Assembly (NCBI GenBank): GCA_036396895.1
Contig: DASWKB010000030.1
Span: 1-59,773 of the forward strand
Origin: a bacterium
GTDB lineage: Bacteria; Omnitrophota; Gorgyraeia; Aquiviventales; Aquiviventaceae
Length of the DNA stretch: 59,773 nucleotides
Direction: 5' to 3'
Made by a program: the position numbers and the translations under genes. The notes beneath the pieces are model-generated. The model ran no database searches, was not told the DNA's origin, and was given only the letters and a program-made list of their open reading frames with translations. Below are positions 8,036 through 58,277 of the stretch, in pieces. How positions within the stretch are numbered: the stretch's first letter is position 1; each line of letters begins with the position of its first letter.

Positions 8036-8048
8036 CAGTGGATCAGTC

Positions 8049-8140
8049 GGATGCTGGATGGGAACCGGACCTCGGCAAACGAGAAGCTGGAAGCTGGAAT
8101 GCGCTCCGCATCATTCCAGCTTCCAGCATCCAGGTTCCCG
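8049..8140. repeat. Inverted heptamer array (GAAGCTG type)
   Basis: gctggaagctggaatg (8086-8101) is the exact reverse complement of cattccagcttccagc (8112-8127). Outer pieces ggatgctgga/tccagcatcc and gggaacc/ggttccc. Confidence 0.85.
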
Positions 8141-8178
8141 AATCCGGCCAGATTCGGCCGCGCCAGGGGACCGGGTCA

Positions 8179-8207
8179 TTGCGCGGAGACGAGGAGCGTG
8201 CTAGACT
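8179..8207 (+). promoter_or_regulatory. Putative sigma70 promoter for the lipoprotein-pgsA-der-plsY unit
   Basis: TTGCGC (8179-84), 17 nt, TAGACT (8202-07) with extended -10 TG. A 5'-UTR hairpin (ggatga 8213-18 / tcatcc 8243-48) precedes SD GGAGGAGG. Confidence 0.55.
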
Positions 8208-8268
8208 ACCACGGATGAGTTGAGCCGGCTGGAACCGGCCGATCATCCACAGCGGAGGAGGGCACACG

Positions 8269-8655
8269 ATGAAACGAGCGCTCGGCACGGTTGCGGCGGT
8301 CGGGCTGACAGCCGTCGCCATGGGGCTGGCCGGATGCGAGTCCATGGGCACCGCGGCGCAGTCCAAGACGGTTCAGGGCGGAGTCCTCGGCGGCGCGCTC
8401 GGCGCGGCCACGGGGGCGGTGATCGGGCATCAGACAGGCCGCGCGGGCGAAGGCGCCGCGATCGGCGCGGGTCTCGGTGCCGTCGGCGGCAGTCTGGTCG
8501 GCCACGGCATGAGCGAGCAGGAGCGCCGGCTGCAGCAGCAGCAGACGCCGCAGGCGACCGCCGGCACCAAGTTCTGCCCCGTGGGCGGAGAGCTGTACAG
8601 CGAGGACATCAAGTACTGTCCGAAGCACGGGGTCGAGCTTCGCGTCAAAGAATAA
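8269..8655 (+). CDS. Glycine-zipper lipoprotein with C-terminal Cys/His motif
   Basis: Lipobox LAGC; GGVLGGALGAATGAVIG...GAAIGAGLGAVGGSLVG zipper; tail FCPVGGELYSEDIKYCPKHG; strong SD. Confidence 0.8.
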   Translation: MKRALGTVAAVGLTAVAMGLAGCESMGTAAQSKTVQGGVLGGALGAATGAVIGHQTGRAGEGAAIGAGLGAVGGSLVGHGMSEQERRLQQQQTPQATAGTKFCPVGGELYSEDIKYCPKHGVELRVKE

Positions 8656-8683
8656 GAGCCGGAGCTGATCCGCCGCGCGGGCG

Positions 8684-9226
8684 ATGAGCCTCCCCAACAA
8701 GCTCTCCGTCCTGCGCATTCTCCTGGTTCCCGGGGTGGTGGCGTCGCTCGTGTATTACCATCCCTCCCGTGACTGGCTGCGGTGGGTCGCGTTTGCGCTG
8801 TTCGCCGCCGGCATGGTGTCCGACGCGCTCGACGGCATGCTCGCCAGAGCGCGCCGCGAGCACTCGGAGCTGGGCGCGTTGCTCGATCCGATCGCGGACA
8901 AGCTGCTGATCCTCGCCACGCTGATCAGCTGCGCCGCCATCGAGGGGCTGCCGGCGTCGATGCGGGTGCCCGCCTGGTTCAATCTCATCGTCATCAGCCG
9001 GGACGTCATCCTGGTGACGGGCGTGCTGCTGCTCTTCGCGATCCAGGGCCGCTGGCGCGTCGCGCCGACGCGGCTCGGCAAATGGACCACCGGAGTCCAA
9101 ATGCTCGTCATTCCCACCGTCCTGCTCGGCCTGCCGGTCAAAACGCCCCTCATCGCGGCCGCCAGCGTGCTGACCGTGTGTTCGGGGATCAGCTATGTGC
9201 GGCTCGGGCTGCGCATGCTTGACTGA
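8684..9226 (+). CDS. CDP-alcohol phosphatidyltransferase (PgsA family)
   Basis: SDALDGMLAR...GALLDPIADK signature; hydrophobic segments. Confidence 0.92.
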   Translation: MSLPNKLSVLRILLVPGVVASLVYYHPSRDWLRWVAFALFAAGMVSDALDGMLARARREHSELGALLDPIADKLLILATLISCAAIEGLPASMRVPAWFNLIVISRDVILVTGVLLLFAIQGRWRVAPTRLGKWTTGVQMLVIPTVLLGLPVKTPLIAAASVLTVCSGISYVRLGLRMLD

Positions 9227-9237
9227 TCGTCCGGCCC

Positions 9238-10629
9238 ATGGCGTCCCCCGGCCTCCCGTCTGATGCCCTCCGCGTCGCGATCGTCGGGCGTCCCAACGTC
9301 GGCAAGTCGACGCTGTTCAACCGCCTGCTCGGGGCGCGCCGCGCCGTCGTGTCGCCGGTGCGCGGGACGACGCGGGATCGCGTGTCGGGCCGGATGCGTT
9401 GGCGGGACCGGACGCTCGTGCTGACCGATACCGGGGGGTTCGAGGCCGACAGCGCCTCCGCACTCGAAGCGGCCATCCAGCGGCACATCGCGACCGCGGT
9501 CCGCGAGGCCGACGTCGTGCTGTTTGTCTGCGATGCCCGGGACGGACTCGTCCCGCAGGATGAGCTGGTCATGGACGCGCTCCGGCCCTCCGGCAAACCC
9601 ATCGTGGTCGCGGTGAACAAGGTGGATCACGGCCTCGGGCCGCCGGAAGAGTTCTTCGAGTTCGGTTTGGAGCGCGTGCACGGGGTCTCGGCGCTTCACG
9701 GGCGTGGCATCGGGGACCTGCTCGAGACGCTCGCCGAATGCGCCTCCCGCGGGGAATCGGAGCCGGAGACGCCCGTGTCGGCGGCGGTGGCGATTCTCGG
9801 GCGGCCGAATGTGGGCAAGTCCTCGCTCTTCAACGCGCTGTTGGCCGAGGAACGGGTCATCGTGAGCGAGCGGCCTGGCACCACGCGCGACGCCATCGAT
9901 ACGCCCATCGTCGTGGGCGGGACCCGGGTCACCATCGTGGACACCGCAGGGCTGCGGCACCGGAGAAAAGTGCGCGACCCGGTCGACATGTTTTCGATGT
10001 CCCGGTCGATCGACGCCATCGATCGCTGCGACGCGGCCATCATGGTGGCGGACGCGACTCAGGGCGTCACGCGAGATGACGCCCGGATCGCCACCAGAGT
10101 CGTCGCCGCCGGGCGGGGGCTCGTGCTGGCGCTCAACAAGTGGGATCTGGTGGAGGGTGTCGATCCCGCGTCGCTGCCGGCGTATATCCGCGACCAGTTG
10201 CCCTTCGCGGCTTTCGCGCCCGTGTTCGCGATATCGGCCAAGACCGGCGCGGGCGTGATGGCCCCGCTTGAATCCGCCATCGACATCGCTTTCCGGATTC
10301 GCGCCGGGGTTCCCGCCAACGAAGTGGAGGCGCTGCTCAAGGCGGCTTGGACGTCTCATCCGCCGCCGAGGATGCGGGGGCGCCTTGTGAATCTCAAACA
10401 CGCCGTCTGGAGGGCCGAACGCGACGGCGGAGCGCGCCGGCACCCGGGCGTGGAGCTCTCGATTGCCCCGCCGGGTCCGCTGCCCGCCGTCTACCGGCAG
10501 TATCTGCTGAACCGGTTGTATGCCGACGCGCGGTTTCGCGGCATCCCGATCACCATCGCCGTGAAAGAGCCGGAGCGCCTCAAGCGCCGGCGCGTCCGTC
10601 ACGCCAGGGGCGGGAGGAGGACCCGATGA
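9238..10629 (+). CDS. der: Ribosome biogenesis GTPase Der (EngA)
   Basis: Two GRPNVGKS P-loops, DTGG/DTAG, NKVD/NKWD, GTTRD twice. Confidence 0.97.
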   Translation: MASPGLPSDALRVAIVGRPNVGKSTLFNRLLGARRAVVSPVRGTTRDRVSGRMRWRDRTLVLTDTGGFEADSASALEAAIQRHIATAVREADVVLFVCDARDGLVPQDELVMDALRPSGKPIVVAVNKVDHGLGPPEEFFEFGLERVHGVSALHGRGIGDLLETLAECASRGESEPETPVSAAVAILGRPNVGKSSLFNALLAEERVIVSERPGTTRDAIDTPIVVGGTRVTIVDTAGLRHRRKVRDPVDMFSMSRSIDAIDRCDAAIMVADATQGVTRDDARIATRVVAAGRGLVLALNKWDLVEGVDPASLPAYIRDQLPFAAFAPVFAISAKTGAGVMAPLESAIDIAFRIRAGVPANEVEALLKAAWTSHPPPRMRGRLVNLKHAVWRAERDGGARRHPGVELSIAPPGPLPAVYRQYLLNRLYADARFRGIPITIAVKEPERLKRRRVRHARGGRRTR

Positions 10630-11243
10630 GCGCGGCGCAGGCGGCGGCATGGATCGGCGCGTATCTGTTGGGCTCGGTGCCGACGGGATTCCTGGTGGTG
10701 CGGGCGCTGGCCCACGTCGACGTGCGCACGGTCGGCAGCGGCGGCACCGGCGCGACGAACGCCGGCCGGGTCCTGGGCCGGCGCGGAGCGGTGCTGGTGT
10801 TCGTCCTGGACATGGCGAAGGGGTGGCTGGCGGTGCGCGTCCTGGCCCCATGGGGCGGGGGAGGGGCGGATCCGCTCATGGAGTGGAGTTGCGCGCTGTT
10901 GGCGGTCGCGGGCCACTGCTATCCGGCATGGCTCGGGTTCCGCGGAGGCAAAGGTGTCGCCACGACGGTCGGCGCGCTGGCCGGCATGTTGCCGGTGTTG
11001 GCGCTCGTGTTTGCGGCGGTCTGGGCGGGCTGCGCCGCCGTCTGGCGATTCGTCTCCGTGGGGTCGATGGCCGGCGCCGTAGCCGTTCCGGTCGCGCAGG
11101 CGGCGTTGGGTCTGTCCGTCGGCGAAACGGGCTTCGGGATCTTGCTCGCGCTGCTCATCGCGCTGCGCCACCGCGAGAATGTCCGCCGCCTCGTGCGCGG
11201 CACCGAACCCAAGATCGGCCGATCGTCATCTGCATCGAAATAA
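10626..11243 (+). CDS. plsY: Glycerol-3-phosphate acyltransferase
   Basis: YLLGSVPTG, GSGGTGATN, DMAKG, GHCYP..LGFRGGKGVAT, RHRENVRRLVRGTE. ATGA overlap with der. Confidence 0.95.
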   Translation: MSAAQAAAWIGAYLLGSVPTGFLVVRALAHVDVRTVGSGGTGATNAGRVLGRRGAVLVFVLDMAKGWLAVRVLAPWGGGGADPLMEWSCALLAVAGHCYPAWLGFRGGKGVATTVGALAGMLPVLALVFAAVWAGCAAVWRFVSVGSMAGAVAVPVAQAALGLSVGETGFGILLALLIALRHRENVRRLVRGTEPKIGRSSSASK

Positions 11244-11269
11244 CAGCGGGTCCGAAGCTGGAGCGCCTT

Positions 11270-11470
11270 GGGGCGCGGGGCGCGGCGTGAGAATGACCAT
11301 GAGAAGATAGAAGGAAGAAGGTAGAAGGTAGAGAAAGCAAAACGACCATTTTCGTTCCACCCTCCACCCGCCACCCCCCACCTTCCACCTTCTCACAATG
11401 ACGCGATGGCCCCTCGCCTCATTCCCCGTGCCCCGGATACGGATGGACTGACGGAACAGACGGAATTGAC
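11270..11470. repeat. Nested inverted heptamer arrays plus nonamer array
   Basis: GGGGCGC x2; GAAGATA/GAAGGAA/GAAGGTA/GAAGGTA (11303-330); TTCCACC-type x5 (11355-389); CCCCGTG-type (11410-435); GACGGAA nonamers (11441-470). Confidence 0.85.
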
Positions 11471-11504
11471 CAAGCTCAAACGGTGAAGCTCGGCGACACG
11501 ATGA

Positions 11505-11532
11505 TTGACAACGGTGGAAACTCAGCTACAAT
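11505..11532 (+). promoter_or_regulatory. Putative sigma70 promoter
   Basis: TTGACA (11505-10), 16 nt, TACAAT (11527-32). Supports ATG 11547 as the SPOR gene start. Confidence 0.65.
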
Positions 11533-11546
11533 GGTGCCCACGGTAC

Positions 11547-12098
11547 ATGGCCACAGATCCGACGAGCCAGCTTGAGCTGTTTCAATTTTCTGACCGGACG
11601 GCTCCCAAGCCGCACCGCGAAACACTGGGCTGGTTGCAGCTGACGTTCCGCTATGATCAGCTCGTCCTGGTGGGGATCGGCGGTCTGCTCGCGCTGACGG
11701 CGGTGTTCGCGCTGGGTGTCGAGCGCGGCAAGCAGTTGGCGAGGACCGAGCGCGCTCTGCTCGTCCGGCGGATTGCCAAGCCCGCCGCGGCGCCGGAGCC
11801 GGCTGCGGCCGCGCCCGCACCCGCCGAGGAACCAGCGGCGCCTGCGAATCCGCCGGCTCTCACCGCGGCTCAGGCGGACGCAACGCGGTACGTGGTCCAG
11901 GTGGTCACGTACAGCCGGCCTCAACTGGCGACGAGGGAGCTTGAACGGCTTCGGGCGAGCGGAGAACTGGCATTCCTCGCGGACCGGCGCGGCCAGACCG
12001 TGCTGTATGTGGGCCCGTTCGAGTCGAAAGACAACGCCAAGCGTAAACTCAGCACGCTGCGGCAGACCTATCGCGATTGTTTCATGAGGACCCTGTAA
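11547..12098 (+). CDS. Single-pass membrane SPOR-domain protein (FtsN/DedD-like architecture)
   Basis: Short N-tail, TM helix (LVLVGIGGLLALTAVFALGV), Ala/Pro linker, C-terminal YVVQVVTY...VLYVGPFESKDNA SPOR-like domain. Confidence 0.8.
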   Translation: MATDPTSQLELFQFSDRTAPKPHRETLGWLQLTFRYDQLVLVGIGGLLALTAVFALGVERGKQLARTERALLVRRIAKPAAAPEPAAAAPAPAEEPAAPANPPALTAAQADATRYVVQVVTYSRPQLATRELERLRASGELAFLADRRGQTVLYVGPFESKDNAKRKLSTLRQTYRDCFMRTL

Positions 12099-12100
12099 CG

Positions 12101-12346
12101 ATGTCCATACACCCATCGCTTCGCTCGCGCAAGGCGTCGACCGGCGCGCTCAGGAACGTCCTGAAGCGCTTCGAGCGCGTCCGGCATCTACAGGAGCGCG
12201 GCACGTGGACGGACGGCCGTTCGGTCTACGGGCTGCCCAAGATCAAGCAGACCAAGGTCAAGGCCCGCAAGAGCGCCGCCAAGGAAACCGAGGCGGCCGC
12301 CGCGGCTCCGGCGGCGCCGGGCGCCGCCGGCTCGACGGCTGCGTAG
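12101..12346 (+). CDS. PVC-superphylum small basic (signature) protein, TIGR04137-like
   Basis: MSIHPSLR...RNVLKRFERV..L...G.W..G.SVYGLPKIK pattern characteristic of this family; Ala-rich tail. Confidence 0.88.
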   Translation: MSIHPSLRSRKASTGALRNVLKRFERVRHLQERGTWTDGRSVYGLPKIKQTKVKARKSAAKETEAAAAAPAAPGAAGSTAA

Positions 12347-12369
12347 AAATTTCGCGAAGCGAAATTTCT
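12345..12369. repeat. 11-bp AT-rich perfect inverted repeat
   Basis: agaaatttcgc-gaa-gcgaaatttct, overlapping the sbp stop codon. Confidence 0.7.
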
Positions 12370-12394
12370 GAATCGAGAAAGACGCAGAATGCTG

Positions 12395-12429
12395 CACCCC
12401 GGCGGACAGCCGGGGTGTTGTTGTCTTGT
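12395..12429 (+). terminator. Putative intrinsic terminator after sbp
   Basis: caccccggc-ggaca-gccggggtg 9-bp stem followed by T-rich ttgttgtcttgt. Confidence 0.6.
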
Positions 12430-12435
12430 GAATCC

Positions 12436-13185
12436 ATGCCGCAATCCATCGCGTTCGCATCCAGGCGTCCCGCCGGCCCTCCGGGAGAGGAAGTGCGCCC
12501 CGGCCGCGGGGTTCCCGTCGCGTCCGTGAGCCGCATGCAGCGCATCGACGAGGAGGCGATCGGGCGGTTCCGCATCCCCCGCCTGCTCTTGATGGAGCAC
12601 GCGGGGCTTGCGCTGGCGCACACCGTGCACCATCTCCTTCCGGATCCGACGGCTCCGCTCCTGGTCTGCTGCGGCACCGGCTACAACGGCGGGGACGGCC
12701 TGGCCGCCGCGCGCCATCTCGCCCTCTGGGGGTATCGCCCGTGCATCCTCATCGCCGGCTCTCTCGAGGGCCTCCGCGAGGAATGCGCGGCGTTCGCCGC
12801 CATGGCCCGCGCCGCGGGGCTCGTGATCGAATCGCCTCCGGCTCCCGGCGCCCGCGGCCCGCACGCGCGCGCGTGGTCCGAGTACGGCGGCATCATCGAC
12901 GCGTTGCTCGGCATCGGGCTGCGCGGCGAGGTGCGTCAGCCCGAACGGGACCTGATCGAGGCCATCAACGGCTCGGGCGCACCGGTCATCGCGGCGGACG
13001 TCCCCTCGGGGCTCGACGCCGACTCGGGTCGCCCGCTCGGCGCGGCGATCCGCGCGGCCGCTACCATCGCGTTCGGCCTGCCGAAGCGCGGCTGCCTGGC
13101 CCCCGGAGCCGCCGCCTACACGGGCCGGCTGTTCGTCCATCCGATCGGAATTCCGCCGAGCCTGCTGGAGCCCGAAGGCCCATGA
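12436..13185 (+). CDS. nnrE: NAD(P)H-hydrate epimerase (stand-alone YjeF N-domain)
   Basis: MQRIDEEAI...LLMEHAG, CGTGYNGGDG, IDALLGIG, DVPSGL, TIAFGLPKRG. Start uncertain. Confidence 0.88.
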   Translation: MPQSIAFASRRPAGPPGEEVRPGRGVPVASVSRMQRIDEEAIGRFRIPRLLLMEHAGLALAHTVHHLLPDPTAPLLVCCGTGYNGGDGLAAARHLALWGYRPCILIAGSLEGLREECAAFAAMARAAGLVIESPPAPGARGPHARAWSEYGGIIDALLGIGLRGEVRQPERDLIEAINGSGAPVIAADVPSGLDADSGRPLGAAIRAAATIAFGLPKRGCLAPGAAAYTGRLFVHPIGIPPSLLEPEGP

Positions 13186-14303
13186 GCCGTCGGCATCGCG
13201 CGATTCGCGTGTCGCTGGGTCCGCGCTCGTATCCGATCGTGCTGGCCGGCTCCTTCGCCGGGCTGCCGGGCGAGATGCGGCGGCTTGCGCTGCCGCGCCT
13301 CGCGTGGGTCGTCTCGCACGCGCGGCTGCTCGCGACGCACGGACGGCCGCTGTGCGCGTCGCTTGAGCGCGGCGGATGGACCGTCCGCGTGATCACGGTG
13401 CCGGAGTCGGAGCGCGCCAAATCGTTCGCGACGGCGCGCCGGGTGATGGCTCGCGTCGCGCGCGGCAGCCCGATGCGGGTGCCGGTGCTCGTGGCCTTCG
13501 GCGGGGGCGTGGTCGGAGATCTCGCGGGGTTCGTCGCGTCCGTGTACCGCCGCGGCGTGCCCTACGTGCAGGTCGCCACGACGCTGCTCGCGCAGGTCGA
13601 TTCGGCCATCGGCGGGAAGGTCGCCATCGATCTTCCGGAAGGGAAGAATCTCATCGGCGCCTATCACCAGCCGCGCCTCGTCTGGAACCATCTGGGTCTC
13701 CTGCGTACGCTGCCGCCGCGCCAGCGCCGGTCGGGGCTGGCCGAGGTGCTGAAGTACGGCGTCATCGCGGATCCGTGGCTCTGGCGGTATCTGGAGCGCC
13801 GCCTGGATGCGTGTCTGGCGCTGACGCCGGGCGCCGCCCGCGTGATGGTGGAGCGCTCGTGCGCCGTCAAGGCGCGCGTGGTGTCCCTCGATGAGCGGGA
13901 AACCCGGGGACCCAGACTGCATCTCAACTACGGGCACACGATCGGGCACGCGCTGGAGACGGTCACGGGGTACCGGCGATTCACGCACGGCGAAGCGATC
14001 GCCGTCGGGATGTGCGCCGCGGCGCACTTGAGCGCCGCCCTCGGGCGCTGTTCGTCCGGCGACGCGGATCGCATCGAGAGCCTGATCCTGGCCGCGGGAC
14101 TCCCCGTGCGCGCCGATGGGGTGGATCCGGAGGCGGTGCTCATGGCGCTTCGCTACGACAAAAAGTTCGTGCGGGGACGCGCCCGCTGGGTGCTGCCGAC
14201 CCGCATCGGACGGGTGATCGTGGCTGAGGACGTGCCGGAGGCCGCGGTGCGGGCCACGGTCCGCCGGTACGTGCGCAAGCGAGGAGGAGTCCGGCATGGC
14301 TGA
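13182..14303 (+). CDS. aroB: 3-dehydroquinate synthase
   Basis: GGGVVGDLAGF, TTLLAQVDSAIGGK, EVLKYG, LNYGHTIGHALE, HGEAIAVG, DKK. Confidence 0.96.
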   Translation: MSRRHRAIRVSLGPRSYPIVLAGSFAGLPGEMRRLALPRLAWVVSHARLLATHGRPLCASLERGGWTVRVITVPESERAKSFATARRVMARVARGSPMRVPVLVAFGGGVVGDLAGFVASVYRRGVPYVQVATTLLAQVDSAIGGKVAIDLPEGKNLIGAYHQPRLVWNHLGLLRTLPPRQRRSGLAEVLKYGVIADPWLWRYLERRLDACLALTPGAARVMVERSCAVKARVVSLDERETRGPRLHLNYGHTIGHALETVTGYRRFTHGEAIAVGMCAAAHLSAALGRCSSGDADRIESLILAAGLPVRADGVDPEAVLMALRYDKKFVRGRARWVLPTRIGRVIVAEDVPEAAVRATVRRYVRKRGGVRHG

Positions 14304-14559
14304 GGCGCGAATGGAGCCCGTGGGGCGGGTGACGGGGTTCTTCTCGAAAGCGTCGGTTGCGGTGGTCGATCTCAGCGGGGCGCTGGCGGTGGGCGATCAG
14401 ATCTACATCAAGGGGCACACGACGGACCTCCAGCAGGCGGTGGACTCCCTGCAGGTGGACCACCAGGCCGTGACGCAGGGGTCGCCGGGGCAGACCGTCG
14501 GGTTGAAGGTTGCCGGGCGCTGCCGCCCGCACGACCTGATCTATCGTCTTGCCGCGTGA
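14296..14559 (+). CDS. Small beta-barrel protein (translation-elongation-factor-like / U32 C-terminal-like)
   Basis: VGRVTGFFSKASVAVV.L.G.L.VGD.I.IKG.TT...Q.V.SLQVDH......PGQ.VGLKV pattern; SD GAGGAG. Confidence 0.7.
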   Translation: MAEARMEPVGRVTGFFSKASVAVVDLSGALAVGDQIYIKGHTTDLQQAVDSLQVDHQAVTQGSPGQTVGLKVAGRCRPHDLIYRLAA

Positions 14560-14607
14560 CGGCGCGCGTGCCGTTCCAACAACGTCGGAGCGGGACGGCC
14601 CCGGGTC

Positions 14608-15120
14608 CTAGGACCCGAGCTCGAGCGTCAACTCCGTGCCGTTGGCGCGGCGCAGCGTGACATCCCGCTCCCGCACGGCCGTGAGCGTCGCGGAGCCGAT
14701 CGTCTCGCCGACCGTCACGATCCTCCCATTGATGATGGCGTACGAGCGGCCGTCTCCGAAGACGATGCCGGAGAGTTCCAGGGTTCCGGGCCGCCTGGCG
14801 GGAGGAGCGGGGATGGCCGACGGGGTCGCCTCAGGGTCACGGGCCGGGATGGTCGCGGGCTCAGGCGCCGGCGGGTCTCCCACGAATCGTCCGCCGATCA
14901 CGGCCACCCCCCAGATCCCGAGCACGATGAGGCCGAGCACCGCCATGCCGAGCGCGGGGGGGCGCGTGGGTTCGGATTCGGCTTCGCCCTGCGTCTGCCA
15001 GGCATGCGCAGCGGGATCCGTCTTGGACGGCGCCTGAGCCGCGCCGGGCTTGGGCGGGGTGCGGACGCGCTTCAAGGTCGGATCGCGGTCGCGCCGAAGC
15101 GCTTCGTCAATGAGGCTCAT
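14608..15120 (-). CDS. GspB/ExeB-like single-pass membrane protein
   Basis: MSLIDEALRR start, one TM, Pro-rich linker, LSGIVF....YAIINGRIV.VGETI C-terminal domain; directly downstream of an ExeA-like ATPase. Confidence 0.7.
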   Translation of the reverse strand: MSLIDEALRRDRDPTLKRVRTPPKPGAAQAPSKTDPAAHAWQTQGEAESEPTRPPALGMAVLGLIVLGIWGVAVIGGRFVGDPPAPEPATIPARDPEATPSAIPAPPARRPGTLELSGIVFGDGRSYAIINGRIVTVGETIGSATLTAVRERDVTLRRANGTELTLELGS

Positions 15121-15967
15121 CCGGTCCTCCCTCATCAGGCCGGTCTCGGTCGTCGTCCTGGACCTGACCCGACAGCTCGCGGAAGCTGCGGCGTACGATC
15201 TCCCCGTCCACCCGCTTGACCCGGAGAATGTAGCAGGCCAGGAGGCAGCGGTCGCACAGCACGTTGATGAGCCGCGGGACGCCCTTGGCATAGCGGTGCA
15301 CGAGCTCCGTCGCGTCCGGCGTCCATTCGAGCGTCCCGTCCGCTCCGGCGGTTCTGAGACGGTGCTCGATGTACGTGCGGACCTCGTCCAGATCGAGCGG
15401 GCTGATGTGGTACCGGACGGCGATCCGCTGGCGGAGCTGCTCGAGCTGGGGCTGGGCGAGCTTCTCGCGCAGCTGGGGCTGGCCGACGAGGATGATCTGG
15501 ATCAGCTTGTCCTTGTCCGTCTCGAAGTTCGAGATCATCCGGATCTGCTCCAGGAGGCGCAGGCTGAGATTCTGGGCCTCATCGATGATGACCGCGGTGT
15601 TGCGGCCGAGCTCCGCCTGCTCCAGGAGGAACTGGTTCAGCTGGGTGAACAGGCCGAGCCGGTTGCCCCTGGACGGGTTCAGGCCGAAGTCCTCCACGAT
15701 GGCGTGCAACAGCTGCAGCTCCGACAGGTTCGAGTGGAGGATGAGCGCCGTCCGGGTCGTCTCGTCGAGGTGGCGCAGGAGCGACTTGCATAGCGTCGTC
15801 TTGCCGGAGCCGATCTCGCCGGTGATGGCCACGAAGCCCTTGCGCTCGCGGATCCCGTAGATCATGTGCGAGAGCGCCTCCCGGTGCTTGCGCGAGAGGT
15901 AGAGGAAGGACGGATCGGACGTGACCGAGAACGGCTTTTCGCGCAATCCGAGAAATTCGAGATACAT
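15107..15967 (-). CDS. ExeA/GspA-family AAA+ ATPase
   Basis: MYLEFLGLREKPFSVTSDP, GEIGSGKT Walker A, IIDEAQNL Walker B, LVGQPQL, LRQRI, GVPRLINVLCD. Confidence 0.92.
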   Translation of the reverse strand: MYLEFLGLREKPFSVTSDPSFLYLSRKHREALSHMIYGIRERKGFVAITGEIGSGKTTLCKSLLRHLDETTRTALILHSNLSELQLLHAIVEDFGLNPSRGNRLGLFTQLNQFLLEQAELGRNTAVIIDEAQNLSLRLLEQIRMISNFETDKDKLIQIILVGQPQLREKLAQPQLEQLRQRIAVRYHISPLDLDEVRTYIEHRLRTAGADGTLEWTPDATELVHRYAKGVPRLINVLCDRCLLACYILRVKRVDGEIVRRSFRELSGQVQDDDRDRPDEGGPDEPH

Positions 15968-16038
15968 GGCTCTCCCTTTTCGCTCAGCACGCCATTGTAG
16001 CTTGGCATGGACGGAGGCGCAACGGGGGCCTCGGGTCA

Positions 16039-16272
16039 GCGACAAGCGACAAGCAACGAGGGGCCAGCAACCGTGAACCAGGCTCGTTGCCGATCAGGTC
16101 TGAAGCTGGATGCTGGAAGCTTGAAGCTGGAACTACTCATTCCAGCCTCCAGCGTCCAGCCTCCAGCTTCCGACCACTGAACGCCACGGTACACGTTGCA
16201 CGGCACACGATGATAGCCCGCCCCTCGCCCCGTGCCCCGTCTCTGGACTTGTCACCTGTCACTAGTCACGCA
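16039..16272. repeat. Nested inverted heptamer arrays
   Basis: Outer left GCGACAA GCGACAA GCAACGA GGGGCCA GCAACCG TGAACCA; inner GAAGCTG-type x4 (16102-129) versus TTCCAGC-type x4-5 (16140-174); outer right GCCCCTC GCCCCGT GCCCCGT ... CTTGTCA CCTGTCA CTAGTCA. Confidence 0.85.
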
Positions 16273-16331
16273 CTTCTTTGATCACAGACCCCAGGGAGAC
16301 CCCAGGGAGGCTGGCGACACCCGGACGTGCA

Positions 16332-16340
16332 TGGTAGAAT
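16332..16340 (+). promoter_or_regulatory. Possible extended -10 promoter for pgk
   Basis: TGgTAGAAT about 40 nt before the pgk ATG; no good -35. Confidence 0.35.
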
Positions 16341-16381
16341 ACCCGTTCAGATATGCGACCCGCCACAAAGGACACCAAGCC

Positions 16382-17599
16382 ATGAAACAGACAGTTCGTG
16401 ACATCGACGTCAAGGGCAAGCGGGTGCTGATCCGGGTGGATTTCAACGTGCCGCTCGAGAAGAGCTCGGGCGCGATCACGGACGACACCCGCATCAGGGA
16501 AAGCCTCCCGACCATCCGCCACTGCCTCGAGCAGGGCTCGCGGGTGATCCTCATGAGCCATTTGGGCCGCCCGAAGGGCCAGCGCGTGGCGTCCATGTCG
16601 CTGCGTCCCGTGGCGGAACGGCTGGGGGCGCTCGTGGGGCGCCCGGTGCGGTTTTCCGAGTCCGCCATCGGTCCGGAGGCCGAACGCGCGGTCTCGGCGC
16701 TGAAGCCCGGGGAACTGCTACTCTTGGAGAACCTGCGGTTCATGCCGGAGGAGGAGAAGAACGACCCCGGGCTGGCGCGGCAGCTGGCACGCCTCGGGGA
16801 CGTCTTCGTGAACGACGCGTTCGGGAGCGCGCACCGCGCGCATGCGTCGACCGAAGGCGTGGCGCACCATCTGCCCGCCGTCGCGGGATTCCTGATGGAG
16901 AAAGAGATCCGGTATCTCGATGAGGCGCTCGCCGAGCCTGCGCGGCCCTACGTCGCGATTCTCGGCGGGGCGAAAGTCTCGGACAAGATCGGCGTCCTCA
17001 CCCGGCTGCTCGAGCGGGTGGACCGCGTGCTGATCGGCGGCGGGATGGCCTACACGTTCCTCAAGGCGCAGGGGCGCGCGATCGGATCCTCGAAGCTCGA
17101 AGCGGACAAGGTGGAGCTGGCGGGCGCGCTGCTGGCGGACGCGGCGCGGCGGAAGGTCGAACTCGTGCTGCCGAGGGACCACGTCATCACGACGTCGCTC
17201 GAAGACGGCAGCGACATGCAGCGCACCGCAGGCGCGGACATTCCCGAGGGGTGGCTGGGCGCGGACATCGGCCCCGAGAGCGTGCGGGAGTTCCTGCGGG
17301 CGCTGGGGGGCGCCAAGACGGTGATCTGGAACGGCCCGGTCGGCGTGTTCGAGCAGCCGCGGTTCGCGGAGGGCAGCCTGGCCGTCGCCAGGGCGCTGGC
17401 CGCGCTCGATGGGACCACCGTCATCGGGGGCGGGGATACGGCCGCGTGCGTCCAGCAGTTCGGACTCGCGAAGACCATGAGCCATATCTCGACCGGCGGC
17501 GGGGCGTCGCTGGAATTTCTCGAGGGCAAGGTGCTGCCGGGGATCGCGATTCTCAGGGACCGCTCCGAAACGGCCGCGGCCCGTCCCGGAGCGCCGTGA
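16382..17599 (+). CDS. pgk: Phosphoglycerate kinase
   Basis: RVDFNVP, SHLGRP, LLENLRF, NDAFGSAHRAHAS, GGAKVSDKI, WNGPVGVFE, GGGDT, STGGGASLEFLEG. Confidence 0.99.
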   Translation: MKQTVRDIDVKGKRVLIRVDFNVPLEKSSGAITDDTRIRESLPTIRHCLEQGSRVILMSHLGRPKGQRVASMSLRPVAERLGALVGRPVRFSESAIGPEAERAVSALKPGELLLLENLRFMPEEEKNDPGLARQLARLGDVFVNDAFGSAHRAHASTEGVAHHLPAVAGFLMEKEIRYLDEALAEPARPYVAILGGAKVSDKIGVLTRLLERVDRVLIGGGMAYTFLKAQGRAIGSSKLEADKVELAGALLADAARRKVELVLPRDHVITTSLEDGSDMQRTAGADIPEGWLGADIGPESVREFLRALGGAKTVIWNGPVGVFEQPRFAEGSLAVARALAALDGTTVIGGGDTAACVQQFGLAKTMSHISTGGGASLEFLEGKVLPGIAILRDRSETAAARPGAP

Positions 17600-17600
17600 G

Positions 17601-18374
17601 ATGCGCCGGCCGATCGTCGCAGGCAACTGGAAGTGCCACCTGACCGTGCCGGAGGCCACCGAGCTCGTGCAGCAGCTCGTGTCCGGCTGCGACACGGACG
17701 CGGTGGACGTGGTGGTCTGTCCCGCGTTTACCGCGCTCGCGCCGGTGGGCGTCCTGCTGGAGGGTTCCGTGTTGCAGCTGGGAGCGCAGGACGTCTTCTG
17801 GGAGGCGCAGGGCGCGTTCACCGGCGAGGTGTCTCCCGCCATGCTCCGGGACGTCGGGTGCCGCTACGTGATCGTCGGGCATTCGGAGCGGCGGCGGGTG
17901 TTCGGCGAATCCGACGAGACGGTCCGGCGGAAACTGCGCGCGGTCTTCGCGCACAACCTCAAGCCGATCCTCTGCATCGGGGAGACGCTCGAGGAGCGCG
18001 AGGCGGGCCGCACGGCTGCGGTGCTGGAGCGCCAGCTGGAGGGCGCGCTCGAGGGGGCCGATCCCGCCGAGTGCGAGCGGCTCGTCGTGGCGTATGAGCC
18101 GGTTTGGGCGATCGGGACCGGGAGGCACGCCGCGCCCGAGCAGGCGCAGGAGGCGCATCAGACGATCCGCCGGTGGCTCGCCGGGCGGCTGGGCGAGCGG
18201 ACGGCCAAGTCGGTGCGGATTCAGTACGGCGGCAGCGTGACGGCGGTCAACGCCGGCGCGCTGCTCGGGCAGCCCGACGTGGACGGCGCGCTCGTGGGCG
18301 GGGCGAGCCTCAAGGCGGGCAGTTTCGGCACGATCGTGAAGGCGGCCCACGAAACGCAGGCGGTGAACCGGTGA
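17601..18374 (+). CDS. tpiA: Triosephosphate isomerase
   Basis: AGNWK, GHSERR, AYEPVWAIGTG, YGGSV, LVGGASL. Confidence 0.99.
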   Translation: MRRPIVAGNWKCHLTVPEATELVQQLVSGCDTDAVDVVVCPAFTALAPVGVLLEGSVLQLGAQDVFWEAQGAFTGEVSPAMLRDVGCRYVIVGHSERRRVFGESDETVRRKLRAVFAHNLKPILCIGETLEEREAGRTAAVLERQLEGALEGADPAECERLVVAYEPVWAIGTGRHAAPEQAQEAHQTIRRWLAGRLGERTAKSVRIQYGGSVTAVNAGALLGQPDVDGALVGGASLKAGSFGTIVKAAHETQAVNR

Positions 18375-18772
18375 TGTACTACGTGATTCTGGCGGTCCAT
18401 GTGCTCGTGTGTGTGTTGCTCATCGTCATCATCCTCGTGCAGGGCGGGCGGGGCGGGCTGGGCGAAGCGCTCGGCGGATCCGGTTCGCAGTCGCTCTTCG
18501 GCGGGGGCACGAACGTCGTGATCGCGAAAGTCACCGCCGTCGGCGGCGCCGTCTTCATGGCGACGTGCCTGACGCTGGCGCTCCTGTCGGCCGCGCGGGG
18601 CCGTTCGGTCATCGAACGGGTCCCGGCCACGCTGCCGGACGTGTTCCCGGCGGCGCTGCCGCAGGCAGATGCACAGCGGTTGCCGGCTCCTCCGGCGAGC
18701 GCCCAGCCGGAGCCGGAGGCGGCGGCTCCCGAGGGCACCCCGGAGCCGGCCGGGACTCTCACGCCGGAATAA
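18374..18772 (+). CDS. secG: Preprotein translocase subunit SecG with Pro/Ala-rich tail
   Basis: TM1, LVQGGRGGLG...GGSGSQSLFGG, TM2; canonical position after tpiA. Confidence 0.92.
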   Translation: MYYVILAVHVLVCVLLIVIILVQGGRGGLGEALGGSGSQSLFGGGTNVVIAKVTAVGGAVFMATCLTLALLSAARGRSVIERVPATLPDVFPAALPQADAQRLPAPPASAQPEPEAAAPEGTPEPAGTLTPE

Positions 18773-18777
18773 CCCCC

Positions 18778-20589
18778 GTGCGCGCGCCCACGCGTGGACA
18801 GTTCGACCCGGAGGAACGGCGCGCCCGTCCGGTCGGCCGGGCGGCGATGGTGTGCGCCCTGGCGGCGGCGCTGGCCGGATGCGGCGGACACCCCCGCGCG
18901 CCGGAGCCGCCGCAGGCGCCCGCGGACGCGCCGGAATCCTCCGGGACATCCGAACCGCGCGTCGGCGGCACGATCACCCTCTCAGCCACAGCGGACCCCA
19001 AATCCTTCAATCCCATCGTGGCCATGGAGACGTCCACCACGGCGGTGACGGGCCTGATCTTCGAAGGGCTCACCCGGACCAACGGGATCACGACGGAGGT
19101 GGAGCCCGCGCTGGCGGAATCCTGGGAGGTCAGCGAGGACGGTCTCCGATGGATCTTCCGGCTCCGGCGGGACGTCTCCTGGTCAGACGGCATGCCGTTC
19201 ACGTCCGAGGACGTCGTCTTCACCTACCGGGACCTGATCTTCAATCTCCAGGTTCCGTCCAGCTCCAGGGACATCTTCACCATCGAAGGCCGCCCGATCG
19301 AGGTCCGGGCCGTGGACCCCCACACGGTGGAGTTCGTCACGGCCACGCCCTTCGCGCCGTTTCTCAGGGCGCTCGGCCAGGAGATCCTGCCGGCGCACCG
19401 GCTTCGCCGGGCGGTGGCCGCGGGGACGTTCGCCTCGACTTTGGGTCTCGATACGCCGCCTGAGGACATCATCGGGACCGGCCCGTTCCGGCTCATCGAG
19501 TATCTCCCGGGGCAATACGCGCGCTTCGTGCGCAACGAGCGCTACTGGCGCCGGGACGCGGACGGCCGGGCGCTGCCGTATCTCGAGGAAGTGCGGATGA
19601 TGTTCGTCCAGAGCCCGGATGTGGCGCTCCTCAAGTTCCAGGAAGGGGAGCTGGACCTCTACAGCCTGCGCTCGTCGGACTACAAGATCCTGAAGCCGGG
19701 GGAGCGCGCAGGCGGCTACACGGTGTTTGAGCTGGGGCCCGCCTTCGGCACCAACTTCCTCGTGTTCAATCAGAACCGGTCGGCCAACCCCGAGACCGGG
19801 CGGGCGGCCGTCCCCCCGCACAAGCTGGCCTGGTTCACCGACCGCGCGTTCCGGCGGGCCGTGGCCCGCGCCATCGACAAACCGGGCATCATCGAGATCG
19901 TCATGGACGGCCTCGGCTATCCCCAGCACGGCCCCATGAGCCCCTCGGCGGGCGCGTTTTACACCCCGGACGTGCCGGCGTATCCCTATGACGTGGCGCG
20001 CGCGCGCGCGGCGCTCGCGGAGGCGGGGTACCGCGATACCGACGGCGACGGGATCGTCGAGGATCCGGGCGGGCGGAAGGTCGAGTTCACGCTCTTCACG
20101 AACGCGGACAACACCGACCGGGTGCAGATCGCCAACTTGATCCGCAAGGACCTGGAGCGCCTCGGATTCAAGGTTCATTTCACGCAGCTGGAGTTCAACG
20201 CGCTTGTGACGAAACTGAACGCGACCTACGACTGGGATGCCATCATCATCGGCCTGACGGGAGGGATCGAACCTCATTTCGGCAAAAATGTCTGGCACTC
20301 GAGCGGCCATCTGCACATGTGGCATCCACGGCAGCCGGAGCCCGCCGCTCCGTGGGAAGCCGAGATCGACCGGATCTTCGACCGTGCGGTCCAGGAGCTC
20401 GACCCCGCCGCGCGCAAGGCGCTGTACGACCGCTGGCAGGTCATCGTCGCTGAGGAGCTGCCCGTCATCTACACGGTCCTGCCGCCGGCGCTGACCGCGG
20501 TGCGCGACCGGTTCGGCAATCTCCGCCCCACGGCCTTCGGGGGCGCCCTGCACAACCTCGAGGAACTGTACGTGCTCGACGGCCAATGA
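18778..20589 (+). CDS. ABC transporter substrate-binding lipoprotein (family 5, OppA/DppA-like)
   Basis: Lipobox LAGC, DPKSFNP, LAESWE, WSDGMPFTSEDVVFT, GTGPFRL, FRRAVARAID. Start GTG 18778 or ATG 18847. Confidence 0.92.
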   Translation: MRAPTRGQFDPEERRARPVGRAAMVCALAAALAGCGGHPRAPEPPQAPADAPESSGTSEPRVGGTITLSATADPKSFNPIVAMETSTTAVTGLIFEGLTRTNGITTEVEPALAESWEVSEDGLRWIFRLRRDVSWSDGMPFTSEDVVFTYRDLIFNLQVPSSSRDIFTIEGRPIEVRAVDPHTVEFVTATPFAPFLRALGQEILPAHRLRRAVAAGTFASTLGLDTPPEDIIGTGPFRLIEYLPGQYARFVRNERYWRRDADGRALPYLEEVRMMFVQSPDVALLKFQEGELDLYSLRSSDYKILKPGERAGGYTVFELGPAFGTNFLVFNQNRSANPETGRAAVPPHKLAWFTDRAFRRAVARAIDKPGIIEIVMDGLGYPQHGPMSPSAGAFYTPDVPAYPYDVARARAALAEAGYRDTDGDGIVEDPGGRKVEFTLFTNADNTDRVQIANLIRKDLERLGFKVHFTQLEFNALVTKLNATYDWDAIIIGLTGGIEPHFGKNVWHSSGHLHMWHPRQPEPAAPWEAEIDRIFDRAVQELDPAARKALYDRWQVIVAEELPVIYTVLPPALTAVRDRFGNLRPTAFGGALHNLEELYVLDGQ

Positions 20590-20591
20590 TT

Positions 20592-20843
20592 CCACAGAGA
20601 CACAGAGCGGAACGTCCGAGTACACCACAGATGTCACAGAGTGCGCTCGGAAATTTGATGAAGGTTTCCATGTTGAAACTTCTATTTCTACCTTCCACCG
20701 TCCACCTTCCACCTTCCACCTTCTTGCGTGGATGTCATGGTCCAATGCCCCATTCCCCGTGCCCCGATCTCAGACGGACTGACGGACCTGACGGACCTGA
20801 CGGACCTGACGGAACCGACGGAATAGACGGAACCGACGGACTC
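20592..20843. repeat. Composite array: CACAGAG nonamers, TTCCACC heptamers, CCCCGTG heptamers, 8 GACGGA nonamers
   Basis: CCACAGAGA CACAGAG...CCACAGATG TCACAGAG; TTCTACC TTCCACC GTCCACC TTCCACC TTCCACC (20686-720); TCCAATG CCCCATT CCCCGTG CCCCG; GACGGACCT x3 and variants (20773-843). Confidence 0.9.
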
Positions 20844-20897
20844 CGGTCCCGTCTCGCCATCCCGGCGTGGTGGCAACAGTGATCTGAGGCTCCCGAG

Positions 20898-21869
20898 ATG
20901 CTGCAATACGTCGTCCGGCGTGTCATCGTGGCGATCCCGCTGCTGTTGGCGATGTCGTTCGTGACCTTCATGTTCATCCAGGCCGCGCCGGGCGATTACT
21001 TCGATCTCCTCCGCCAGAATCCCCAAATCTCCGAGGCGGTGATTGACGCGCTCCGGGCGCAGTACCGCCTGGATCAGCCGCCGCTCATCCAGTACGGCTC
21101 ATGGCTGTGGCATCTTCTGCAGGGGGACCTGGGGTACTCGTTCGCGTATAAGGCGCCGGTCGCCGCCGTCATCGCCGGCCGGATCGGCAATACGCTCATC
21201 CTCACGGGCGTGGCGATGATCCTCGCCTGGCTGATGGCGATTCCGCTGGGCATTTACGGGGCGTTCCGTCACCAGACCGCTGCTGACCGCGCGCTCAGCT
21301 TCTTCGCCTACGTCGGGATGTCGATCCCGAATTTCTTCCTGGCGCTCCTCCTCCTCTACCTGGCGTCGCTGACCGGCTGGCTTCCCCTGGGCGGGATGCG
21401 CTCGGCGGGCTTCGCGGCGCTGTCCTGGCCGTCGAAGGTGGGGGACCTGGCCGCCCACCTGGCGATTCCGGCGCTCGTCATCTCCACGGCCTCGCTGGCG
21501 GGACTGCAGCGGCTCATGCGCGGCAACACGCTCGAAGTGCTCCGGGCGCCGTTCGTCGTGACCGCACGCGCCAAGGGGCTCACCGAGCGCCGCGTCCGGT
21601 ACGTGCACGTCCTGCGCAACGCGATCAATCCGATGATCACGATCTTCGGCTACGAGCTCTCCTCGCTGCTGGGCGGAGCGGCGCTGACGGAGATCATCTG
21701 CAGCTGGCCGGGGCTGGGCTCGCTCATGCTCGGCGCCGTCCGGCAGCAGGACCTGTTTCTGGTCATGGGCAGCATGCTGATGGGCGGGATCATGCTGCTC
21801 GGCGGCAACCTGATTGCGGACCTGCTGCTGGCGTGGTCGGATCCCCGGATTCGCTATGGGCGCATCTGA
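20898..21869 (+). CDS. Peptide/nickel ABC permease (OppB-like)
   Basis: QYGSWLWHLLQGDLGYS, ARAKGL EAA loop, HVLRNA, EIICSWPGLG. Confidence 0.94.
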   Translation: MLQYVVRRVIVAIPLLLAMSFVTFMFIQAAPGDYFDLLRQNPQISEAVIDALRAQYRLDQPPLIQYGSWLWHLLQGDLGYSFAYKAPVAAVIAGRIGNTLILTGVAMILAWLMAIPLGIYGAFRHQTAADRALSFFAYVGMSIPNFFLALLLLYLASLTGWLPLGGMRSAGFAALSWPSKVGDLAAHLAIPALVISTASLAGLQRLMRGNTLEVLRAPFVVTARAKGLTERRVRYVHVLRNAINPMITIFGYELSSLLGGAALTEIICSWPGLGSLMLGAVRQQDLFLVMGSMLMGGIMLLGGNLIADLLLAWSDPRIRYGRI

Positions 21870-22956
21870 GCGGGTCGGCGTCAGCCCCCTCCGGCGGGGG
21901 CTCGGGCGCCTGCGGCGCAACGGGGTGGCGATGGCGAGCGCGGTGGCGCTGGGCGCGATGTACCTGGCGGCCGCGGCGGCGGGCTTCGTGGCGCCGTACC
22001 ATTACGACGACGAGCGGCGCGATCTCTCCTACCATCCGCCGAGCGCCGTCCGCGTCGTGGACGCGGAGGGCCGCTGGCGCCGCCCGTTCGTGTACGCCAC
22101 GACGATGGAGTTCGACGCCTACCGGCGCCGGCACGTCACCGAGGACCGGACCCGGCGCTATCCCATCGGGTTCTTCGTCCGCGGCGAGCCGTACCGCCTC
22201 TTCTGGCTGATCCCCTGCGACCGGCACCTGTTCGGCGTGGCGGCGCCCGCGCGGCTGTATGTGGCCGGCGCGGATTCCCGGGGCCGTGATCTCTTCAGCC
22301 GATTGGTGTCCGGGTCTCAGGTGTCGCTCTCGATCGGCCTGGTCGGCGTGTGCGTCACGTTCACGCTGGGCATGTTCGTGGGGGGGCTGGCAGGGTTCTA
22401 CGGGGGCTGGGCGGACGAGCTCATCATGCGGCTGTGCGAGATGATCATGATGATCCCGGGCTTCTATCTCCTCCTGGCGTTGCGCGCGGCGTTCCCGCCC
22501 GAGCTGTCCTCGGTCGAGGTGTACGTGCTCATCGTCATCATGATGTCGTTCATCGGCTGGGCGGGCCTGGCCCGCGTCATCCGGGGGATGGTGCTGTCGC
22601 TCCGGGAGCGGGAGTACGTCGTGGCGGCGCGCGCGGCGGGGCGGGGGTCCGTCGGCATCGTCTTCAGCCACCTCTTGCCGAACACGGTCTCGTACGCGGT
22701 GGTGGCGGCCACGCTGTCCGTGCCCGGATACATCCTGGGGGAGAGCGCGCTCAGCCTGCTCGGACTCGGCATTCAGGACCCGCACGCCAGCTGGGGGAAT
22801 TTATTGTCCGAAGCGATGAACGTTTCGCAGCTGGCGTTTCACCCCTGGGTGCTGTGGCCCGGCGTGTGCATCTTCGCGACGGTGATGGCGTACAACTTCC
22901 TCGGGGACGGGTTGCGGGACGCGTTCGACCCACGGCTGGAAACGGCCCGCCGTTAA
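21856..22956 (+). CDS. Peptide/nickel ABC permease (OppC-like)
   Basis: GADSRGRDLFSRL, EYVVAARAAG, HLLPN, ESALSLLGLG, NFLGDGLRDAFDP. Confidence 0.94.
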   Translation: MGASERVGVSPLRRGLGRLRRNGVAMASAVALGAMYLAAAAAGFVAPYHYDDERRDLSYHPPSAVRVVDAEGRWRRPFVYATTMEFDAYRRRHVTEDRTRRYPIGFFVRGEPYRLFWLIPCDRHLFGVAAPARLYVAGADSRGRDLFSRLVSGSQVSLSIGLVGVCVTFTLGMFVGGLAGFYGGWADELIMRLCEMIMMIPGFYLLLALRAAFPPELSSVEVYVLIVIMMSFIGWAGLARVIRGMVLSLREREYVVAARAAGRGSVGIVFSHLLPNTVSYAVVAATLSVPGYILGESALSLLGLGIQDPHASWGNLLSEAMNVSQLAFHPWVLWPGVCIFATVMAYNFLGDGLRDAFDPRLETARR

Positions 22957-58171: not shown

Positions 58172-58200
58172 ATTCGACCATCGAGCCATGGGAATGAGTC

Positions 58201-58245
58201 GTCTGTGGCGTCTGTGGTGCTCTTGAGCTCTGTGCGCTCTGTGTG
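58201..58245. repeat. Nonamer array (CTCTGTG type)
   Basis: GTCTGTGGC GTCTGTGGT GCTCTTGAG CTCTGTGCG CTCTGTGTG; reverse-complement relative of the CACAGAG units at 20592-20642. Confidence 0.75.
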
Positions 58246-58247
58246 CC

Positions 58248-58277
58248 TTGACGCGCTTGCGCGCGCTCGTGCATACT
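58248..58277 (+). promoter_or_regulatory. Putative sigma70 promoter for pilin cluster
   Basis: TTGACG (58248-53), 18 nt, CATACT (58272-77). Confidence 0.5.

Follow-up and report, generated by a model that had tools for sequence, protein, structure and literature searches.

Within the window, i.e., the complete 59,773-nucleotide stretch analyzed here (contig DASWKB010000030.1 of assembly GCA_036396895.1, from a bacterium of the Omnitrophota family Aquiviventaceae), two composites of short tandem repeats, in the following termed copy a (aligned part 11355-11470) and copy b (aligned part 20686-20801), are probably sister copies of a dispersed mosaic repeat that is non-coding, specific to the genus, and acts at the DNA level. 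In our best reading, this repeat resembles the bacterial interspersed mosaic elements (BIMEs) in layout and is built from heptameric simple sequence repeats (SSRs). The first-pass annotation of the window had described a gapless colinearity of 116 bp between both loci with one common order of modules, and this was borne out: 87 of 116 positions are identical in the gapless alignment, raised identity on the alignment diagonal is confined to ~11350-11470, and both loci carry TTCYACC heptamers ending in TTCT, 16 nt, CCCCNNN units, 9 nt, and GACGGANNN nonamers in this succession. The two exact 16-mers reported as shared are likewise both present, but only one of them is informative. CATTCCCCGTGCCCCG is private, its sole genome occurrences being the two loci, whereas CCACCTTCCACCTTCT is a frequent word of the family and, because of its 15 occurrences in the genome, gives no pointer to a special relation between the two loci.

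Ranking of all 190 pairings of 20 full-length family copies by gapless 116-nt identity placed this pair first (87 identities, followed by 82, 82, and 80; median 61). The two copies, separated by 9.3 kb, are also reciprocal best matches in the genome with a score of 88, the next scores being 69 and 68. Copies a and b are each other's closest relatives, and both are decayed. The colinearity of two copies in itself is ordinary inside this genome and adds little, except that neighboring copies are related.

The host genome bin comprises 1.62 Mb on 71 contigs with 68% G+C, the window being its contig C30. Its contigs are 100% identical to contigs of the source metagenome Ga0214471, which hence provides no independent assembly, and a search for contigs encoding oppB, the permease gene next to copy b, turned up none either. 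Scanning the metagenome added three further full copies of the repeat (L103, L107, and L113). A sequence-only profile was built from an alignment of 11 other heptamer-CCCC-nonamer composites, leaving out both window loci. It matched copy b across the whole model (20704-20811, 48.9 bits, E 4.1e-14) as well as copy a (11374-11470, 44.2 bits, E 1.2e-12), and on the minus strand it matched the mirrored left arm of copy a at 11258-11322 (E 7.7e-11). Throughout the genome, 94 matches were obtained, ~20 of them with the complete heptamer-CCCC-nonamer order and 10 of these outside the training set. The proposals of common ancestry and of a dispersed element, made in the first-pass annotation together with the suggestion of such a profile scan, hold up on these matches.

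Among 40 relatives from the same family, order, and class, the profile gave no full-length match, with weak partial matches to the CCCC part only. The GAAGRTR array pattern occurs at 344 places here versus 1-5 places in five relatives, and the nonamer pattern at 49 places here versus one each in two relatives. Given these counts and the absence of full-length profile matches from the relatives, the words are of old standing in the family, the composite and its expansion being this lineage's own.

That the similarity arose by accident, through common words slipping independently, or that an assembly artifact duplicated one locus is extremely improbable. Such an origin could draw on the low complexity of the arrays, the frequency of CCACCTTCCACCTTCT, and the difficulties of the assembler, with 26 of 142 contig ends (18%) lying within 250 bp of an array. 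Against it, the two loci share unique connectors along with the private 16-mer, and a profile trained outside the window matches both over their full length. With 29 differing positions, the copies do not represent a duplicated assembly path, and gene order over both junctions is the same as in a syntenic relative.

Vocabulary, order, and anatomy of the mosaic

Tandem Repeats Finder (TRF) detected 854 arrays of period 7 in the genome, compared with 123 arrays having period 6 and 135 having period 8. Their vocabulary is small, comprising GAAGCTG, GAAGGTA/GGTGGAA, GGAATTC/GGAATGC, ACGCGTT, CTGGTTG, CTTGTTG, and CCCCNNG units as well as GACGGAANA nonamers. In a module scan, 96% of 783 arrays were intergenic, and of the 369 intergenic gaps that measure 150 nt or more, 200 hold arrays. 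Within co-directional gaps, arrays start at a median of 27.5 nt past the stop codon and end at a median of 91.5 nt ahead of the next gene.

The arrangement of these arrays is strictly polar. Inverted pairs around a loop, named here after their unit families, numbered 66 A-a, 35 F-f, and 34 B-b with none in reverse, and left-type to right-type junctions were counted 204 times versus 19 in reverse. Each arm is an array of heptamers, 30-140 nt long, and the loops span 6-50 nt. The fixed module order claimed for the two loci, as opposed to a random order in further copies, was found again across the genome: going outward from the center under strict detection, TTCYACC (a) is followed by CCCC (c) 24:0, a by CTGGTTG (d) 11:0, and c by nonamers (n) 4:0, while looser detection yielded 83 a-c successions, 15 c-n versus one n-c, and 10 a-c-n triples. 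Beyond the CCCC block, the outer module varies between CTGGTTG heptamers, nonamers, TTCCAGC arrays, or nothing. In most copies, the connector between a and c belongs to one of two conserved classes, CATGGTCATCCCCACGCCGTG (21 nt) or ACCAGTTCAACGATCGCACGACGTG; conserved connectors and loops are common to dozens of loci, loop types recurring in both orientations.

Array lengths differ between the families, with a sharp mode at 30-32 nt for B, F, and G and a broad range from <23 to 143 nt for A, a spread compatible with active slippage. This bears on the length-constrained scaffold that the first-pass annotation had considered, i.e., a DNA- or RNA-binding factor reading heptads and nonamers in fixed order and spacing. 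The units do possess invariant positions (GAAG.T.), like the GGGANTN units of Xanthomonas (PMC4692102), and the sharp mode of three families, the absolute polarity, and the fact that further genera of the family have the same heptamers in small numbers would all suit such a factor. A scaffold of this kind is nevertheless quite improbable. The connectors are conserved sequences with insertions and deletions rather than fixed lengths of free sequence, lengths within the A family are wide, order past the CCCC block is variable, relatives lack the composite, and no candidate protein was identified. The expectation that spacers keep their length while their sequence drifts failed accordingly: 16 nt are indeed present at both loci, but elsewhere this place is mostly taken by a conserved connector sequence of ~21-25 nt, in which the window copies carry deletions of 6-8 nt relative to the family profile.

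In the layout demonstrated here, each arm is a chain of short tandem arrays reading invariably, from the center outward, GAAGRTR/YAYCTTC heptamers, a conserved connector of ~21 nt, CCCCNNN, a short connector, and an outer module. The latter is one of several, here the GACGGANNN nonamers, and two inverted arms around a loop form a long imperfect palindrome. What had been annotated as a composite is real as a unit, but it constitutes only the right half of a larger structure, namely a single arm within a nested inverted mosaic. This was missed in the first pass, where the left arm of copy a (11258-11322, minus strand) went unnoticed. Copy a (11270-11470) is two-armed, and copy b (20686-20845) has the right arm alone.

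Copy a is flanked by a plsY-like gene (10626-11243) and a gene encoding a SPOR-domain protein. Read on the forward strand, as are all the following features, it begins with the outer left module C of GGGGCGC heptamers (11270-11286; TRF 11270-11285, period 7, 2.3 copies), the inverse partner of the right CCCCNNN module; these outer heptamers fall within the minus-strand profile match 11258-11322. The left connector (11284-11303) is the reverse complement of the type-1 connector (GGCGTGAGAATGACCATGAG), covered by the minus-strand match at model positions 1-69 with 38.4 bits (E 7.7e-11). It is followed by the left arm, an AGAAGGT array of 4.4 units according to TRF (11302-11332), and by the loop GAAAGCAAAACGACCATTTTCG (11333-11354), assigned in a classification of the loops of 70 A-a hairpins and of a type seen again in other copies in both orientations. 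The right arm (11355-11393), delimited by sequence, TRF, and diagonal identity, consists of degenerate TTCCACC/TCCACCC heptamers ending in TTCT. Then comes the degenerate 16-nt connector CACAATGACGCGATGG (11394-11409), where the profile alignment places a 6-nt deletion. It could be assigned to neither connector class, alignment to both consensuses being no better than with shuffles (p > 0.2). The CCCCNNN module (11410-11435; units CCCCTCG, CCTCATT, CCCCGTG, and CCCCG) contains the private 16-mer CATTCCCCGTGCCCCG, and a 9-nt connector with GACGGANNN nonamers (11436-11470), recognized by sequence, nonamer pattern, and profile, completes the copy.

Copy b is located between the gene of an oligopeptide-type solute-binding protein (oppA, 18409-20589) and its permease gene (oppB, 20898-21869). 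Its left flank (20590-20685) shows CACAGAG-type units and a vestigial GAAGGT without a partner arm, as seen in the sequence and in a fold z-score of 0.06. The TTCCACC array (20686-20724; 5.4 units by TRF) leads into the 16-nt spacer of the first-pass annotation (20725-20740), which together with the next bases (TGCGTGGATGTCATGGTCCAATG) is a variant of the type-1 connector (alignment to the type-1 consensus, p ~0.01 versus shuffles). The CCCCNNN module including the private 16-mer (20741-20766) is followed by a connector and an array of GACGGACCT-type nonamers with 7.8 units (20767-20845; TRF 20773-20841, profile match 20704-20811).

Further arrays were observed elsewhere in the window. Upstream of pgk, a large nested mosaic occupies 16040-16270 (GCGACAA units, a GAAGCTG arm, a TCCAGC arm, CCCCTCGCCCCGTGCCCCG, and CTTGTCA units). 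It includes the third CCCCTCGCCCCGTGCCCCG module of the window (16222-16240, forward strand), marked by a weak profile match at 16200-16244. A CTCTGTG-type array is situated near 58.2 kb (58200-58264).

Insertion and probable local spread

Comparison with a relative of the same family (genome G006, 45% G+C), whose contig C110 is collinear with 5688-22956 of the window, exposed the state of both junctions without the repeat. From the plsY stop to the SPOR start, the relative has ~55 nt, which hold a TTGACA..TACAAT promoter, and from the oppA stop to the oppB start it has 7 nt; the corresponding lengths here are ~260-300 nt and 308 nt. No heptamer array was found in the 18-kb syntenic stretch of G006, and oppA and oppB are adjacent genes in two further relatives. 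In the host, a sigma-70-like promoter of the SPOR-domain gene (TTGACA-16-TACAAT, 11505-11532, forward strand; 11 of 12 matches, the only such site in 10 kb) lies directly downstream of copy a. Its place is matched in G006, and copy a ends just before it, marking the edge of the insertion. Since the junctions of the relative are compact and array-free, this comparison shows both loci to be insertions specific to this lineage.

Some observations on the relatives may be added. The aligned G006 locus (L147, G006:C110:4000-22000, set against window 5688-22956) has the same gene order as the host at 45% versus 68% G+C, i.e., across a very large compositional shift, and its gaps are short and array-free. 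All relatives retrieved in a contig scan with PGK were distant, their identity being 59-61% at most. In another relative (locus L088, G001:C69), a (GAAGGTG)4 array with a TCCTGAGCGAAGTCGAA motif at ~1400-1530 lies apparently inside a polyprenyl-synthase-like reading frame, which may point to an in-frame insertion or else to a fault in the assembly.

Relatedness between neighbors is not restricted to copies a and b. Taking A-a hairpins whose loops measure 15 nt or more and considering those 12 kb or less apart as neighbors, 7 of 23 neighboring pairs have similar loops compared with 0.62 expected, a value of 7 being reached in none of 5,000 permutations. Related copies cluster locally throughout the genome. 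We therefore envisage, by way of an explanation, that whole arms or modules would be copied to places just behind stop codons, short distances being preferred, that ectopic recombination or gene conversion would then reshuffle the modules, and that replication slippage would alter the arrays. Copying, reshuffling, and slippage together would account for exact shared 16-mers next to diverged connectors. Those exact blocks beside half-diverged connectors suggest local copying followed by conversion, or conversion between neighbors, and not one clean duplication. The sequence at copies a and b probably serves no sequence-specific function in the cell, and it may be tolerated because the downstream promoter or ribosome-binding site was left intact.

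Several points weigh against this interpretation. Neither a target-site duplication nor a defined terminus nor a cognate enzyme was found for the repeat. The genome's genes for proteins resembling the tyrosine transposases associated with repetitive extragenic palindromic sequences (REPs), the so-called RAYTs, are flanked by palindromes other than heptamer arrays. The sister relation marks the top of a distribution and no extreme outlier (87 versus 82 identities). Functional constraint could lie behind the sharp length peak that B, F, and G arrays show at 30-32 nt, behind the invariant positions of the units, and behind the absolute polarity. Finally, the gene calls were home-made with a codon-usage scorer.

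A more far-reaching idea, which we rate as rather unlikely, is that the mosaics may not be relics of classical transposons but the product of a hitherto undescribed polar DNA transaction, copying or writing the arms in fixed order from the center to the outside, mostly over short range, with neither target duplication nor a recognizable transposase. Hairpin-templated synthesis or a dedicated heptad-reading recombination system may be candidates for it. If true, the words of such a transaction would be common to genera of this Omnitrophota family, similar 7-nt arrays existing in other phyla.

DNA level or RNA level

Functional RNA hairpins in 3' untranslated or intercistronic regions, acting as terminators or as REP-like protectors of upstream mRNA (e.g., raising the expression of oppA above that of oppB), are an alternative to a repeat acting at the DNA level. 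The median array start of 27.5 nt after the stop codon and the larger distance from the next gene, as with the Xanthomonas repeats (PMC4692102), agree with this idea. The stability of hairpins that are intact is very high (mean of -35 to -45 kcal/mol), and the locations of both loci would be suitable, copy a being placed between the plsY stop and the SPOR promoter and copy b between the genes of the binding protein and the permease. The latter is a classic REP position in enterobacterial ATP-binding cassette operons.

Selection on RNA was examined by sense versus antisense stability, G-U counts, compensation, fold z-scores of both loci, and comparison with Rfam. Among 126 co-directional hairpins, no bias toward the sense strand was detected, the better fold being sense in 63 and antisense in 61, with 234 versus 229 G-U pairs. 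Covariation, which the first-pass annotation had recommended looking for, did not emerge: facing variable unit positions of the two arms match 129 times versus 129.7 +/- 3.6 after permuting the unit order. As there is no excess of matches at variable positions, pairing rests solely on the invariant positions of the units. Neither locus folds better than shuffled sequence (copy a, z -1.3; copy b, z 0.06). A terminator scan of both loci found none, the arms being followed by CACAATG and TGCGTGG with no U-tract. In Rfam 15, neither locus reached the gathering score of any family, and only generic hairpin (miRNA-precursor) matches appeared below threshold.

The distribution of the arrays argues in the same direction, as divergent gaps, which have no 3' ends, are as rich in arrays (28 of 67) as convergent ones (27 of 54). 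Copy b, moreover, has no partner arm, and the orthologous junctions in the relative hold neither copy. Functional RNA hairpins are thus unlikely, and selection at the RNA level is rejected on the present evidence, strand, G-U pairs, compensation, fold z-scores, and Rfam all being null. In our best reading, the sequence works at the DNA level with no sign of RNA-level selection, though intact hairpins may affect transcripts. In this respect, the tests favor DNA-level, locally spreading, and recombining modules over selected RNA hairpins, which narrows the range of worthwhile experiments.

Related repeats and other mobile sequences

Reports of heptamer arrays date back decades for cyanobacteria, those on Xanthomonas and Beggiatoaceae having followed later; to our knowledge, neither a mechanism nor a function has been established for them in these bacteria, and we know of no cognate enzyme for the heptamer mosaic family. 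They are among the least understood of the abundant bacterial repeats. The kind of repeat described here was accordingly known before, if little understood, and the two copies are fairly ordinary members. The genome represents an unusually dense case (200 of 369 long gaps) and offers a clean contrast with an array-free syntenic relative. These repeats also have practical consequences, fragmenting assemblies (18% of contig ends) and enlarging the intergenic DNA of Omnitrophota genomes that are otherwise compact.

Among published descriptions, the closest is that of heptameric SSRs in Xanthomonas (GGGAATC/GGGANTN) and Nostoc (GGGGAYT), the function of which is unknown (Rehm et al. 2015, PMC4692102). 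Those repeats share with the present ones tandem units of 7 nt with fixed and variable positions, frequent convergent inverted pairs, a strong bias toward intergenic regions, the distance from the upstream stop (28 nt there, 27.5 nt here), and lengths differing between related genomes. As to their preference for about four units, arrays of B, F, and G type have the sharp mode at 30-32 nt, whereas those of A type, broad in length (<23 to 143 nt), show no such preference. Differences lie in the several unit families and nonamers, which in our case are chained from the center outward with conserved connectors and loops into a copyable composite, as well as in the absence of a G3 run from GAAGRTR units. 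The quadruplex idea is not applicable to the latter because these units have no G-tracts, and the CCCC module of each copy holds only three full C4 runs, short of the four runs of at least three G that a quadruplex would need. For Nostoc, regulatory roles of heptamer arrays have been the subject of speculation (bioRxiv 10.1101/2022.06.06.494920). The heptanucleotide short tandemly repeated repetitive sequences of cyanobacteria and the TAACTGA repeats of Beggiatoaceae are similar in that, within particular lineages, they form abundant heptamer arrays between genes, their function being unknown. In the relevant portion of MacGregor (2015, PMC4679880), the TAACTGA sets are nearly all direct repeats (169 direct, one indirect) and, to that extent, differ from the inverted, nested, multi-module arrays found here in another phylum at 68% G+C.

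Concerning layout, the second point of comparison is provided by REP-type systems, for which we refer to the pertinent portion of Di Nocera et al. (2013, PMC3733652). The present repeat is alike in being a high-copy, palindromic, intergenic mosaic of few modules and connectors in recurring order, and different in that its arms are tandem arrays and not a palindromic unit of 20-40 nt, the RAYT-like genes here being flanked by other palindromes. Enterobacterial REP/BIME mosaics, and REP doublets forming hairpins (REPINs) together with their RAYTs, are intergenic, palindromic, and of high copy number, consist of modules and connectors, and are found after stop codons and in operons, including positions after binding-protein genes.

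A third comparison concerns transposable elements of the miniature inverted-repeat type (MITEs), exemplified by a Porphyromonas gingivalis MITE with a minisatellite, i.e., an internal tandem repeat, as presented in the relevant part of PMC4596501. Judged by that part, common traits are dispersed non-coding copies, inverted ends, an internal array of variable length, and filled versus empty sites between relatives. In contrast, the inverted outer modules here (GGGGCGC and CCCCNNN) leave ends that are array-like and fuzzy, no target-site duplication is visible at either locus, and modules recombine freely. Taken together, the family agrees with MITEs in part and lacks the features by which REPs and RAYTs are defined. 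No parent transposon was found for the family, the systematic search covering Y1 transposases only.

Five RAYT-like Y1_Tnp genes are present in the genome (C4:13732-14064, C43:21380-21709, C16:5271-5606, C45:2554-2895, and C14:18242-18520). Four of them are bracketed by their own classical palindromes (e.g., GGTATCAGATACGTATCTGATACC, CCGGGACAGTCCCGG, and CCCCTCGGTGACAGTCACCGAGGGG) and not by heptamer arrays. REPIN-like systems thus coexist with heptamer mosaics in this genome, and a RAYT/REPIN link for the heptamer arrays finds no support in these flanks. Phage carriage of the composite was examined in IMG/VR, where the type-1 junction had no match. Plain TACCTTC/CCTTCTA arrays of six to seven units do occur in four viral contigs of this database (e.g., L159:5316-5365 and L160:4385-4437), and the TACCTTC word is not restricted to Omnitrophota chromosomes.

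Two further dispersed sequences were encountered. A 40-nt insert, GAGCGAACGAAGTGAGCGGAGTCCTGAGCGAAGTCGAAGG, is found at 25 places, with 15 identical copies (e.g., C5:4467-4506, C7:21515-21554, and C8:14180-14219). It sits inside CCCCNNG arrays in the copies read, is absent from the 40 relatives, and has the look of a small mobile insert of very recent date. A dispersed repeat of ~141 nt (C38:17829-17969 and 16 others) amounts to 17 copies of 93-100% identity and has two hairpins (AAATGCGCCCA..TGGGCGCATTT and AAATGGAACCCA..TGGGTTCCATTT); it has CCTGAGCGAAGTCGAAGGG in common with the 40-nt insert.

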